Virus record (IMG/VR): IMGVR_UViG_3300010366_000022
Coordinates: 1 to 39,446 of that record
Reading direction: 5' to 3' (one strand)
From: a virus
Lineage: Duplodnaviria; Caudoviricetes
Length of the DNA stretch: 39,446 nucleotides
Below the pieces are notes generated by a model. The model saw nothing but the letters and a program-made list of their open reading frames with translations, searched no databases and had not been told where the DNA came from. The position numbers and the translations under genes are program-made. Of the stretch, positions 3,025 through 12,896 are shown one piece after another (positions within the stretch are counted from its first letter, which is position 1; each line of letters opens with the position of its first letter).

Positions 3025-3152
3025 TCCCGCGGTTCCCATCCCGTGGCGCGCCGTTGATGCCGCGTCCACCACCACGACGCCACCGTAAACGTAACCGGAG
3101 TCAACGCAATCCCGCACACGACGCCCAACACGTACGACCACCACGTGATCAC
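3021..3152 (-). CDS. small membrane protein (43 aa, not in ORF track)
   Basis: GTG overlapping the glycosyltransferase stop; MITWWSYVLGVVCGIALTPVTFTVASWWW... Confidence 0.5.
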   Translation of the reverse strand: MITWWSYVLGVVCGIALTPVTFTVASWWWTRHQRRATGWEPRE

Positions 3153-4453
3153 ACCATTTCCAATTGTTGCGGCGCCGGTTCCGGTTCCACCAAATCGATG
3201 CCGTCACAACGCAACCGGTGACGGTACGGCGTCCACGGAACTCGTGGCCCACCCCAACCCATCGCTTTGGTCAGCGCGGCCTTAGACGGGCGCACATGCG
3301 CCCGCGCCATGCGACGCAACCGTTCGTACGTGGGCGTGACCGTGGCCACGGGAATGGCGGCAATCGCACGGTCGAACATGGCGTTGATGGGTTTGATCAT
3401 GTCCACCCACGCGTACCGGCGCGCCACCCCGCGGGCGATGTCTTCGATCGCCCATTCGTTGCGATTGTCCACCACCGATTCGATCAACCGGCCCATGTCG
3501 GCGTCGTCGTCGTACAACCACGGGTACGCCGGACCGACCATTTCCGGGTAGCACAACCGGTTCGGCAACACGTACGGCACACCCACCGACAACCCGTCCA
3601 TGACCGCCACCGACCACGCCGAATAGGTACGAAACGCGCCCACTCCCACGTTCGCGCGCGACAGTTCCCGTAGGTAGTCGTCACGGGTGGTGGCATGAAT
3701 GCGCGTGGCCCACGGCGCGTCCACGTTGGTCAACGTGAACGCCACCCGGAAATCGTGGCGCCGTTTCCACATGGAATCGAACATCTGGCACGCGGCCGGA
3801 AACCCGGTGTAGGAATTCGCACGGTGGTTGAACACCACCAACCCGTGTTCCATCGGTTCGGGCACGATCGTCAACGGATCGACACCCAAATGCTGCACCG
3901 ACAACCGCGTGGCCAACGACGCCACCAACGGCGGCGCCACCACGTGCGACGCGCGGTCGATGACCAAATCCCGCAACCACGTGGAGTTGACCCCACATTC
4001 GCGCATGGCCAAAATCCCGTGCAAATTGGCGGGCAACATCGTCTCCGCGTACGCGGAGTTCTCGGCCACTTCGAACCAATGCGCGTATCCGACGATCACC
4101 GGCCGTTCGTTGGTGGCGTTGGCGAACACGTTGGCGATTTGCAGCGTGTGTTCGGGTAGATGCGACCACACGACGTCGTACGACCGCGCCCGCCAATCGA
4201 TCGCACGCACGAACGTGGGCGCATCGAACGACGTGCGCATGGTGTTGGGATAACGTGGCAACGGGTAGTGGACGTGGCGAACGTTGGGAAACCGCAGCGA
4301 CCGCACCGGTTCCGGCAGCAACATGGTGAATTCCAAATCGTCGCGCACGGCGTTCAACGCCCGGATCATCGACCGCACCGCCACCACGTACGAATCGGCA
4401 CCCAAATCGCGCCCGTACGTGATGTTCGGATACACCAAAACTTGGTAGGTCAC
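3149..4453 (-). CDS. GT-B fold glycosyltransferase (possible DNA modification)
   Basis: 434 aa; DVVWSHLPEH, VVFNHR, WSVAVMDGLSVGVPYVLPNRLCYPEMVG resemble GT4-type C-terminal nucleotide-sugar binding region; coupled to Mom-like gene. Confidence 0.8.
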   Translation of the reverse strand: MTYQVLVYPNITYGRDLGADSYVVAVRSMIRALNAVRDDLEFTMLLPEPVRSLRFPNVRHVHYPLPRYPNTMRTSFDAPTFVRAIDWRARSYDVVWSHLPEHTLQIANVFANATNERPVIVGYAHWFEVAENSAYAETMLPANLHGILAMRECGVNSTWLRDLVIDRASHVVAPPLVASLATRLSVQHLGVDPLTIVPEPMEHGLVVFNHRANSYTGFPAACQMFDSMWKRRHDFRVAFTLTNVDAPWATRIHATTRDDYLRELSRANVGVGAFRTYSAWSVAVMDGLSVGVPYVLPNRLCYPEMVGPAYPWLYDDDADMGRLIESVVDNRNEWAIEDIARGVARRYAWVDMIKPINAMFDRAIAAIPVATVTPTYERLRRMARAHVRPSKAALTKAMGWGGPRVPWTPYRHRLRCDGIDLVEPEPAPQQLEMV

Positions 4454-5322
4454 GCGTCACCGCGTTTCGGATACGGCTTCGTATGTGGCGCCAACGCTTT
4501 GATGATCGCACGCCGTGAACGCCGATCACCGATGGGCAACACGTAACAATGTTTCCGGGTGTTCATGTCCGCCACTTTCACTAGTTCATGCCCGCGTTCC
4601 GCAACCAACCGGAACGCCTCGTTGCTTTGTGTCCCGACCCACGCTACCAAACTGCGGGGATGGAACGGTCGGCCGTCCAATAGGTAGCCGGGGCGCGCAT
4701 CGGACACGCCCACGTACACGGCGTTGACTGCTTGATAGATGCCGCCGTGATGCCCGGCGCCCGTGTCGGCGTACGAAAACACCCACGCGATCCCGGTGGC
4801 CGCGACCACCCGGTTCGCCGCCGCCACCAACCGCGAAGTGGTGAACCGCGGCGCCGACGGATGCACCGCCACGCGCGCGATTTCGATGTTGCCCGGCCAC
4901 GCGGTCAACCCGTATTTCTTCGCCACACCGTGCGCGTTGGTGGGTTGGGCGTACACGACCACGCCTACCATGTCGGGCGCGAACGCGGCGATGCGGTGGC
5001 ACGCGCCCGCGGGCATCCCGCCCAAATAGTGGTACCGGCCGATCCATTGTTCGGCGGTGTAGTGGGACACATCCCGCAACACCCACGGGCGGGCAAAATC
5101 GGGGTCGTCCAACGCGAACAACGCCCCATCCGGCGGTGACACCGGGACGACGACCGGTTCGGGCACCGGTGCCACCACCACCGGGACGTCCCCGTCCCAC
5201 AACGGCATTTGCTCATAGCGGGCCGATGGAATCGAACCATCACCTCGGGACGTGGCACGCCCGTGTGCTGACCACTTACACCCGGCCCGCCCGCAAATGG
5301 GGACCGATTCCGCGCACCGCAC
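4450..5322 (-). CDS. mom: Mom-family (GNAT-fold) DNA adenine modification protein; start 5322 (GTG) or 5208 (ATG)
   Basis: RYHYLG, EIARV, SYADTGAGHHGGIYQAVN.VYVG and terminal PYPK motifs typical of Mom-like proteins. Confidence 0.85.
   Translation of the reverse strand: MRCAESVPICGRAGCKWSAHGRATSRGDGSIPSARYEQMPLWDGDVPVVVAPVPEPVVVPVSPPDGALFALDDPDFARPWVLRDVSHYTAEQWIGRYHYLGGMPAGACHRIAAFAPDMVGVVVYAQPTNAHGVAKKYGLTAWPGNIEIARVAVHPSAPRFTTSRLVAAANRVVAATGIAWVFSYADTGAGHHGGIYQAVNAVYVGVSDARPGYLLDGRPFHPRSLVAWVGTQSNEAFRLVAERGHELVKVADMNTRKHCYVLPIGDRRSRRAIIKALAPHTKPYPKRGDA
5217..5290 (-). tRNA. atypical tRNA-Gly(GCC)-like element, CCA not encoded
   Basis: GCGGGCC GG GTGT AAGTGGTCA GCAC A CGGGC GTGCCAC GTCCC GAGGT GATGG TTCGATT CCATC GGCCCGC T: 7-bp acceptor, D-arm with GG, GCC anticodon, perfect T-arm, U73. 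Confidence 0.8.
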
Positions 5323-5350
5323 GACCGGGCCACACGAAACCGGTCCCCAT
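5297..5350 (-). promoter_or_regulatory. 18-bp RNA hairpin immediately 5' of the tRNA-like element
   Basis: ATGGGGACCGGTTTCGTG pairs with CGCGGAATCGGTCCCCAT (3 G-U on minus strand). Confidence 0.6.
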
Positions 5351-5688
5351 CACCATGGTGGCATATCGATCGAACGGTTCACCCGCGACGCGATCCCGCG
5401 GATGCGTTCCACGTTGGCCACCCGTTCCGCATCGGTCAACGCCGGTTCGGGCAACGCCCGTCGTGACGTCCACCGGCGCGCCACCGCGTACGTGTCGCGG
5501 ATGGCGGACACGGACGGAAACCGGTGGTCCCGTTCGATGATGACGTCAATCGCCGTCCGCGCCGCGTCCGCATCCGACAACCGCACCAAATGGTGGACGT
5601 ACACGTCCACGGTTTCGGCGGAAATCGTCATCCACGGATACGCCGCGCACAATCGCGCCACGATCTCAATCGCGTCCGAATTGTTCAC
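5350..5688 (-). CDS. replicative helicase loader/inhibitor-like protein
   Basis: IVARLCAAYP...AIDVII...RFPSVSAIR pattern of G39P-like phage proteins following replisome genes; AGGAGG RBS. Confidence 0.6.
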   Translation of the reverse strand: MNNSDAIEIVARLCAAYPWMTISAETVDVYVHHLVRLSDADAARTAIDVIIERDHRFPSVSAIRDTYAVARRWTSRRALPEPALTDAERVANVERIRGIASRVNRSIDMPPW

Positions 5689-11896: not shown

Positions 11897-11957
11897 CGCT
11901 GACCCCCTTTCGGTGGTGGTGGGTGACACGTGGAACCCACGTGCCGGAACATCCAAT

Positions 11958-12031
11958 CGGACGTTCCGCCGGACCCACCCCCGCGCCCCACGTGGAGGAG
12001 GGGATTTGAGGTGGGTCCGGCGCAACGCCCG
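11958..12031 (-). ncRNA. intergenic hairpin, family B copy 1
   Basis: 24-position stem CGGGCGTTGCGCCGGACCCACCTC / GGGGTGGGTCCGGCGGAACGTCCG with G-U pairs and one G.G mismatch. Confidence 0.65.
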
Positions 12032-12050
12032 TGTGGGGGTTGCGCGGCGA

Positions 12051-12783: not shown

Positions 12784-12844
12784 AACGGACGCCCCGCGGA
12801 ACCCACCCCGGTGGGTGTGAGGTGGATTCCGCGCGGCGCCCGTT
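12784..12844 (-). ncRNA. intergenic hairpin, family B copy 2
   Basis: AACGGGCGCCGCGCGGAATCCACCTC / GGGGTGGGTTCCGCGGGGCGTCCGTT; compensatory changes relative to copy 1. Confidence 0.65.
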
Positions 12845-12896
12845 AGGGTTCCGCGCGATCCCCGCGGCCGTGATCCTTGACGGCGGGGAAACTAGG

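Follow-up and report, generated by a model that had tools for sequence, protein, structure and literature searches.

The Mom protein of phage Mu glycylates the N6 position of adenine and takes the glycyl group from host tRNA, i.e., Gly-tRNA-Gly is accepted as the donor and Gly-tRNA-Ala is rejected, and all three host tRNA-Gly isoacceptors can be used (PMC13219725). An earlier note on the DNA analysed here, which named Gly-tRNA-Gly as the Mu Mom donor, is correct on this point. Dedicated tRNA-Gly species are known from Staphylococcus aureus, in which NP1–NP3 tRNA-Gly act as non-proteogenic donors for FmhB, FemA and FemB (PMC7826273), and the EF-Tu value published for the staphylococcal NP tRNA is −9.5 kcal/mol (PMC3239215). 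The elements by which GlyRS recognizes its tRNA have been reported as G1–C72, C2–G71, U73, C35 and C36 (PMC9976931, PMC7826273). Here we describe a tRNA-Gly(GCC)-like RNA adjoining a mom-family gene in a viral DNA of 39,446 nt (the window, i.e., the whole stretch that was analysed), and the family of RNAs to which it belongs.

The RNA and the mom gene in the window

Table 1. Features of the window around the tRNA-Gly-like RNA
Feature	Position	Strand	Basis or remark
tRNA-Gly(GCC)-like RNA, G1 to U73, no encoded CCA	5217..5290	minus	ARAGORN, Rfam RF00005, model R1, arm-by-arm comparison
mom-family GNAT gene, 252 aa	4450..5208	minus	PF25680, phrog_1384, PDB 8bv8
Stop-free in-frame mom extension through the RNA, from GTG 5322	5209..5322	minus	probably not translated
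20-bp RNA hairpin, five G·U pairs, no mismatch	5296..5351	minus	folding energy
Upstream gene, weakly helicase-loader-like	5350..5688	minus	phrog_2289, E 3.7e-4
Downstream 434-aa gene, resemblance to viral GT-B (GT4-like) glycosyltransferases	3149..4453	minus	ESM Atlas look-alikes

ARAGORN at default settings makes a single tRNA call in the entire window, a tRNA-Gly(GCC) at 5216–5291 of the minus strand, and the Rfam model RF00005 scores 5217–5290 at 42.3 bits (gathering threshold 29), a score at which its cloverleaf passes as a tRNA. Both results agree with the earlier note, which had placed a cloverleaf at this site and regarded it as the only tRNA-like sequence of the genome. The family model R1, for which 30 loci were used that were also among those scanned with it later, likewise has one match in the window, namely this RNA, and its 39.2 bits fall within the 36–55 bits of ordinary host tRNAs. 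The acceptor stem is paired in 7/7 positions, including G1–C72, C2–G71 and G3–C70, and is followed by the discriminator U73; together with C35 and C36, the GlyRS identity set is complete, as had been claimed. The D stem has 4 bp and G18G19 is present, the T stem contains G49–C65, A50–U64 and U51–A63 below a canonical T loop, and the anticodon loop reads G32-U33-G34-C35-C36-A37-C38 on a stem with a C27·C43 mismatch and a G30·U40 pair. Positions 8 and 9 are both G. The degraded translation features pointed out previously are thus seen: the canonical marks U8, unpaired 32/38 and G51–C63 are all missing and are replaced by G8, G32–C38 and U51–A63. The minimum-energy fold (−34.9 kcal/mol) differs from the cloverleaf (−30.6 kcal/mol), and the acceptor and T arm are common to both. 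The element is identical letter for letter in contigs of a second study. No close DNA relative of 5200–5360 was found among GenBank phages, and a clade-specific DNA pattern search returned only 4 loci, 1 of them on a newly met contig.

The neighbouring gene was claimed to encode a Mom protein, and both its profile and its predicted fold uphold this. It matches Pfam PF25680 with 103.6 bits (E 1.5e-29; cut-off 27.1) and phrog_1384 in a PHROG profile search, its best PDB match by sequence is Mu Mom 8bv8 (E 4e-9), and the same structure is the best Foldseek match of the predicted model (E 2e-12; pLDDT 89.6), in which the helical insertion is present as helices 184–191 and 197–204.

The RNA was described as built into the 5′ end of mom. 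The frame from GTG 5322 indeed runs through the RNA with no stop, and U73 does lie 8 nt before the ATG at 5208. However, the database gene call begins at this ATG; third-position GC, which is 0.8–0.93 over most of the mom body, is 0.6–0.73 over 5385–5161; nothing significant was matched among homologs by the N-terminal 45 residues of the 290-aa frame (best E 5.1); and the GTG is located in the loop of the 20-bp hairpin. For these reasons, translation from GTG 5322 was judged unlikely, and in this genome the RNA is probably not part of mom but borders its coding sequence on the upstream side. The possibility of a single-base frameshift at the ATG that follows U73 was likewise rejected, as no indel occurs there in contigs of two studies, one of which is possibly the source of the window itself.

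The hairpin begins at the stop codon of the upstream gene, which shares the strand and frame of mom, and ends 5 nt before G1. With −39.6 kcal/mol (z −5.55; equal stability in 0/200 shuffles), it ranks fifth in stability among the non-overlapping sites when 3939 60-nt windows of the minus strand are compared, and it may be a terminator/attenuator or a processing signal; a scan for sigma-70 promoters and terminators returned nothing on the minus strand. On the other side, the 434-aa gene overlaps the mom stop by 4 nt. Its product has ESM Atlas look-alikes scoring 0.97–0.99, with PF00534 in some clusters, and no match in Pfam, PHROG or NCBIfam; the resemblance is a lead that it is possibly a second modification enzyme.

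A family of RNAs linked to mom genes

The mom-linked tRNA-Gly-like RNAs form a widespread family, which we did not find described in the published literature. An identity-blind forward scan of 143 mom loci (after 90% protein dedupe) found a tRNA-like fold at the mom 3′ end in 94, compared with 13/143 and 11/143 in control windows. These blind-found folds carry GCG/CGC/U73 in 87/94 and C35C36 in 82/94 cases; the blind counts replace those from a first element finder, which demanded GCG/CGC/T and was therefore circular at those positions. In the reverse direction, a search by RNA motif alone gave 59 distinct loci, of which 57 have Mom on the same strand no more than 1.5 kb away, with Mom just past the flank in one of the two misses, whereas canonical tRNA-Gly(UCC), used as the control, had Mom beside it in 0/53. 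A single-protein scan of viral contigs returned nothing, and alignment-based scans succeeded. In 30 long elements, 94.7% of the cells are paired and 16 of 22 pairs show changes on both sides; none of 500 shuffles was as good, and slid controls pair at 33–42%. The check proposed in the earlier note, whether covarying tRNA-Gly-like folds recur at the 5′ ends of mom homologs, thereby came out in its favour, except for their place: most members overlap the YPK-R codons at the 3′ end of mom, not its 5′ end. A 5′-embedded, truly translated class is present in other phages. Other copies lie upstream, before a parB-like gene (about 1.2 kb upstream of mom) or detached at 59, 115, 598 and 614 nt downstream of the mom frame, and such a variable position fits a diffusible product. 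The 3′-embedded copies use all three reading frames (55/27/6 of 88), which argues for selection on the RNA and not on a peptide.

Across the family, CCA is encoded in 82/95 elements, the D arm is missing in 62/95, and base 34 varies freely. At least three of seven non-canonical marks occur in 94/95 elements compared with 1/83 control tRNA-Gly, and the window RNA has three; control tRNA-Gly mostly carry U8 (89/97), unpaired 32/38 (88/97) and G51–C63 (82/97). The window RNA keeps U33, UUC, A58 and G18G19 and is among the least degenerate copies. It combines the features by which mom-linked RNAs are defined here, i.e., Gly identity, purine 8, a paired 32:38, absence of G51–C63, and a position next to mom on the same strand, and arm by arm it resembles the members of a full-length subclass with a canonical T loop. 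The signature of such window-type RNAs is not Mom-exclusive, with 4/8 beside Mom; in five records with odd purine-8 RNAs, PF25680 was unmatched, which is weak evidence, as the control likewise matched nowhere. A quick tree was used only to place the window; it was labelled with a stricter script, by which model-found elements (for example, L090, L073, L018 and L426) are missed, and its clade labelled '3sep' is probably 3′-embedded.

Most family members escape the usual search programs: ARAGORN at default settings reports a tRNA near mom in only 5 of 160 mom loci, and RF00005 gives 2 tRNA matches in 20. In cultured Arthrobacter phages, the RNA occurs in 22 records and is unannotated in the three inspected. 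The RNA was not found in Mu, phage Lifes or one complete 57.8-kb relative, and mom loci in bacterial genomes carry it in only 26/56 cases. In the clade of the window, most Mom proteins end just after YPK-R, about 13 of 81 listed tails resemble a translated element as judged by eye, no second case of the upstream untranslated layout was found, and L085, the nearest relative with DNA, has no element within its flanks. As Mu and many close relatives are without it, the RNA is not essential to Mom and would be an accessory raising donor supply.

Proposed role and competing explanations

We think it probable that the window RNA is processed, charged by GlyRS and able to evade EF-Tu, and that it serves Mom as a glycyl donor. 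A message containing the RNA and mom would arise when transcription passes the upstream hairpin; cleavage by RNase P, trimming of the 3′ end and addition of CCA by the host enzyme would then produce the mature RNA, which host GlyRS would charge via its identity set. Weaker EF-Tu binding and poorer decoding are predicted from U51–A63, G8 and the closed 32:38 pair, and the calculated EF-Tu affinity is −9.5 kcal/mol, a prediction to be compared with −10.7 ± 0.4 kcal/mol for 80 controls. The charged RNA would thus stay free, and Mom is predicted to transfer its glycyl group to N6-adenine of the phage DNA.

We consider it unlikely that the RNA is simply a phage tRNA-Gly, intact or slightly decayed, which serves translation or a common pool on which Mom also draws. 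Its passing of ARAGORN and Rfam and its retained G18G19, U33, UUC and A58 would suit such a tRNA, whose GCC anticodon would read GGC/GGU, i.e., 249 of the 475 Gly codons counted in 12 genes of the window, and in Microbacterium phage Appa a normal-looking tRNA-Gly is annotated next to mom, on the opposite strand. However, the combination of G8, G32–C38, U51–A63 and C27·C43 is rare among the control tRNAs, RNAs with U8 and G51–C63 lie beside Mom in 0/19 cases, and the arm-by-arm agreement is with the mom-linked subclass. A control in cis of the mom message, in which RNase P cuts the mimic, or GlyRS or Mom binds it, so as to limit expression of a host-toxic enzyme, is also unlikely as the main role. 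The window RNA borders the start codon and is preceded by a strong hairpin, a stop codon lies beyond U73 in 84/88 of the 3′-embedded copies and would be removed with the excised RNA, excision in the 5′-embedded class would cut the gene start, and some regulatory effect is hard to avoid; on the other hand, it is at a free charged end that an encoded CCA and U73 are of importance, and the RNA is also found detached from the mom frame. Control in cis and a donor function can coexist.

Improbable, in our judgement, is an uncharged decoy, i.e., an RNA antidote that binds and restrains Mom until late infection. The RNA does resemble the co-substrate of Mom and would be co-transcribed with mom, and the acceptor end, thought to be read by Mom (PMC13219725), is its most conserved part, but retention of C35C36 with a free base 34 is the pattern of GlyRS, whereas Mom accepts all three anticodons. 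Integration at tRNA genes is common, and the record is rated 85% complete, so that an integrase could be missing; nevertheless, an origin as an attachment site, or as a host tRNA gene remnant present by chance, is largely refuted and very improbable, as no tyrosine integrase or resolvase was found in the record, host-type tRNA-Gly mostly carry the G51–C63 absent here, and covariation and mom linkage extend over the family.

The glycyl-donor reading may be extended into a joint one, to which we give slightly less than even credence. Phage DNA-hypermodifying GNAT enzymes would widely encode their own co-substrate as stripped-down, often D-arm-less tRNA-Gly mimics in or against the enzyme gene; host GlyRS would charge the mimics, which would remain out of reach of EF-Tu and the ribosome, and each Mom would prefer its own mimic; release of an embedded RNA would destroy the message, so that one transcript would give the enzyme first and the glycyl carrier later; and this type of carrier would also serve a second enzyme family, phrog_7858, with a GNAT-phage-like C-terminus. 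Mu would then look exceptional, with most sampled Mom genes carrying a predicted purpose-built carrier RNA that gene and tRNA finders largely miss, and the C-terminal tails, which are variable in many Mom proteins, would be explained as translated RNA. If true, dedicated non-proteinogenic tRNA-Gly would have arisen a second time, independently, natural minimal substrates of GlyRS would be at hand, many of them lacking the D arm, and a phage way around EF-Tu competition late in infection would be shown. The cultured Arthrobacter phage carriers make the donor idea testable now.

Comparison with described systems

The window protein shares with Mu Mom (Silva et al. 2026, PMC13219725; 8bv8; PF25680) the enzyme family, the fold and six important residues of the list in that paper, with H58, Y59, R111, S124, D149 and Y159 of Mu kept as H60, Y61, R112, S125, D148 and Y158. 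However, its identity to Mu Mom is 27%, R151, which is essential in Mu, is G150, W181 is replaced by Pro, and a nearly invariant Asn is F122. By sequence it is a Mom-family member and, with R151 and W181 lost, a mere candidate for the Mu-type reaction, in which 6-NcmdA is formed on dsDNA from Gly-tRNA-Gly. The glycine-tRNA identity of the window RNA agrees with the co-substrate demonstrated for Mu, which itself is without such an RNA and whose Mom has been read as a scavenger of host tRNA (PMC13219725). Relative to canonical tRNA-Gly (RF00005), the window RNA shares the cloverleaf, identity elements, G18G19, U33 and T loop, and departs at G8, the Watson–Crick 32:38 pair, U51–A63 and C27·C43.

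The parallel to the staphylococcal NP tRNA-Gly, which the earlier note had drawn, holds in that the GlyRS set is kept, the 51–63 pair is weak, the calculated EF-Tu affinity is the same and the consumer is a tRNA-dependent GNAT-fold transferase. The staphylococcal RNAs are chromosomal, full-length, restricted to staphylococci and feed peptidoglycan, whereas the mom-linked RNAs are phage-borne, often without a D arm, often inside the frame of the enzyme, and would feed DNA. The anticodon (UCC vs. GCC) and the T stem (A49–U65, U50–A64 and A51–U63 vs. G49–C65, A50–U64 and U51–A63) also differ. Thus, the window RNA is not a staphylococcal NP tRNA, and the two may be likened in function only.

The window RNA and its mom gene

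The window (39.4 kb, 64% GC) is a tailed-phage record with genes for terminase, portal, capsid, sheath and baseplate, and soil metagenome runs contain DNA identical to it. A near-identical repeat of ~37 nt at both ends (roughly positions 20-56 and the final 36 nt) suggests that the record may be complete despite an estimate of 85%. The two most stable minus-strand hairpins genome-wide, at 11945-12044 and 12787-12846, have a common 8-nt motif and similar arms. The earlier note's assignment of the protein to Mom is borne out by Pfam, PHROG, PDB sequence match and fold; counterparts of Mu Mom H58, Y59, R111, S124, D149 and Y159 are kept, and those of R151 and W181 are not (residues as listed in PMC13219725). 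F122 stands where Asn is nearly invariant, which could be drift. The glycosyltransferase-like gene downstream may encode a second modification enzyme of the same operon.

Features of the mom neighbourhood in the window
Feature	Position	Strand	Remark
Weakly helicase-loader-like gene	5688-5350	-	In the minus-strand run with mom
Gap of 141 nt	Between helicase-loader-like gene and mom	-	
20-bp hairpin, five G.U pairs, z -5.55	Loop holds GTG 5322	-	Additional to the earlier note
mom	5208-4450	-	Pfam, PHROG, PDB sequence, fold
Glycosyltransferase-like gene	4453-3149	-	Viral GT-B-like; overlaps mom stop codon

ARAGORN calls a single tRNA in the whole window, Gly(GCC) at 5216-5291, and every structural detail listed for the cloverleaf was present when the sequence was re-inspected. 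The RNA (Rfam score 42.3 bits) has a canonical T loop and lacks none of its arms; its C27.C43 mismatch could be drift. It had been described as built into the 5' end of mom; the frame is indeed open from GTG 5322 through the RNA, but ATG 5208 is the more likely start. The database gene call is a 252-aa protein, third-position GC is lower across the 5' extension, the first 45 residues of the extended frame match no homologue and GTG 5322 lies in a hairpin loop, all of which argues that translation begins at ATG 5208 rather than at GTG 5322. A frame of 24 codons (5351-5277, minus strand), whose ATG overlaps the upstream stop codon, crosses the hairpin and terminates within the RNA's D loop. Many Mom N-termini of the clade (P0003-P0018; window 5214-5197) carry a Q-L-x-(L/F)-D-L-F-like motif reminiscent of a sliding-clamp binding motif.

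A family of tRNA-like elements at mom loci

The C-terminal tails of Mom homologues resemble translated tRNA, and the DNA of mom loci was therefore fetched (160 viral and metagenome loci, 57 genome loci), the sample being seeded by two peptide motifs, capped at the best 80 matches and thus not random. At most of these loci, a tRNA-shaped element starts on or close to the Lys and Arg codons in the YPK-R motif that ends the protein. Deduplication at 90% protein identity left 145 loci, of which 2 were too short; in the other 143, scanned for the fold without regard to identity elements and with the window copy scored as a miss, the fold was found at the mom 3' end in 94/143, versus 13/143 and 11/143 in control windows. 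GCG/CGC/U73 was present in 87 of these 94 folds and C35C36 in 82; with deduplication at 70%, 56/91 loci had the fold, 51 of the 56 with GCG/CGC/U73. A covariance model trained on 30 of the long elements matched 89/104 distinct viral and metagenome loci, a partly circular count, and 26/56 genome loci. The D arm is absent in 62 of 95 distinct elements, and CCA is encoded in 82. Two 420-aa Mom proteins (P0057, P0064) have long tails resembling read-through of several tRNA-like elements.

The linkage also holds from RNA to protein. A T-arm/acceptor motif used without protein information gave 120 viral loci, of which 59 were distinct and had 1 kb or more on each side. At 57 of these, Mom lay within the flank, always on the same strand, and at one of the two misses it lay just past the flank. 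Canonical tRNA-Gly(UCC) controls had Mom beside 0/53 comparable loci, and again at none with a broader profile. The sole element far from the mom gene used to fetch its locus turned out to accompany another mom gene. In a 5'-embedded class, which the same search brought out, the element of the 11 loci examined lies within the open frame that begins Mom, the start codon mostly 7-22 nt before it. One phage record (L012 + L484) has two different mom-family genes separated by ~3 kb, of which only one contains a 5'-embedded RNA.

In the cultured Arthrobacter phages BarretLemon, Sicarius2 and GravityBall (L162:2059-2132; L605 and L606 from 801), an unannotated RNA spans the stop codon of mom; between the three phages its acceptor, anticodon and T stems differ by compensatory changes. 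The RNA occurs at the mom end in 22 Arthrobacter phage records, unannotated in all three inspected, which makes the claim directly testable. Microbacterium phage Appa (L163:2127-2201, minus strand) has an annotated, normal-looking tRNA-Gly(CCC) 33 nt past mom on the opposite strand.

In the 30 long elements, 94.7% of cells were paired, compared with 33-42% in slid controls, and 16 of 22 pairs showed both-sided changes (0/500 shuffles as high), the effect of relatedness being only partly removed. All three reading frames are used by embedded copies (55/27/6 of 88). This covariation and frame usage indicate that the object of selection is the RNA.

The window-type subclass and fitness for translation

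The covariance model (R1) does not separate the window copy from ordinary tRNAs by score. Arm by arm, the copy matches the canonical-T-loop subclass, to which the RNAs of the window's close relatives L082 and L089 also belong. A search for such full-length RNAs yielded 63 distinct loci with full flanks, and the acceptor was intact in 55. Mom lay next to 4/8 RNAs with the window signature (non-U8, no G51-C63), 0/4 with non-U8 and G51-C63, 2/24 with U8 and no G51-C63, and 0/19 with U8 and G51-C63. The four signature RNAs that lack an adjacent Mom comprise two in incomplete records and two directly before a phrog_7858 protein; the latter proteins (L504:3-1619, minus strand; L552:1324-2922, plus strand) lie in complete records, apparently without a PF25680 match. 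The C-terminus of the one tested (L552) is like PF22559 GNAT-phage-like domains, and phrog_7858 is likely a second client enzyme family of window-type RNAs.

A quick tree placed window Mom in a 10-row clade (SH-aLRT 100) with the 3'-type carriers L082 and L089, apart from the 5'-embedded group, so that the upstream position of its RNA looks like a separate relocation. No second upstream, untranslated element was found in the window's clade.

EF-Tu affinity was calculated from published T-stem increments (PMC3239215, Table 2), with a baseline of -10.1 derived here from that paper's staphylococcal value. The window RNA has a predicted -9.5 kcal/mol, equal to the calculated value of the staphylococcal non-proteinogenic tRNAs; control tRNA-Gly gave -10.7 +/- 0.4 (80/83 scored; 3 scored as weak), and the family about -9.95, with the common T-stem bulge left out of the count. 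The window RNA bears three of seven non-canonical marks, and three or more occur in 94/95 family members versus 1/83 controls.

A candidate glycyl donor and its alternatives

The observed part of the mechanism comprises the cloverleaf with its identity set, the linkage to mom, the covariation and the enzyme family. According to PMC13219725, Mom takes its glycine from Gly-tRNA-Gly, Gly-tRNA-Ala being rejected. We consider it probable that the RNA is a glycyl donor: it would be co-transcribed with mom, freed by RNase P and 3' processing, given CCA, charged, and kept from EF-Tu, with transfer to DNA as the final step. Conservation of C35C36 with base 34 free points to GlyRS, and CCA together with a movable position points to a released product. 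Control in cis by the RNA fold is unlikely. That the RNA is an ordinary tRNA is likewise improbable given the marks; a decoy is more doubtful still, and a remnant or attachment site is very hard to credit, the window record having no integrase or resolvase.

The RNA is not needed by Mom. Mu Mom accepts all three host isoacceptors (PMC13219725), and no element was found in Mu, phage Lifes or a complete 57.8-kb relative. Most Mom proteins of the window's clade end directly after YPK-R, and in the nearest relative for which DNA was at hand the flanks contain no element. In the quick tree, Mu Mom (L161) was sister to a 17-row clade with the RNA in 16/17 rows, rows that were found via the RNA.

Neither the mostly open-access literature searched nor Rfam describes a tRNA-like RNA that a phage encodes as a partner for Mom. 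In staphylococci, an EF-Tu-poor tRNA-Gly is reserved for Fem transferases (PMC7826273). A dedicated non-proteinogenic tRNA-Gly is already known, and what is new is a phage-borne, enzyme-embedded and often D-arm-less family that would feed a DNA modifier.
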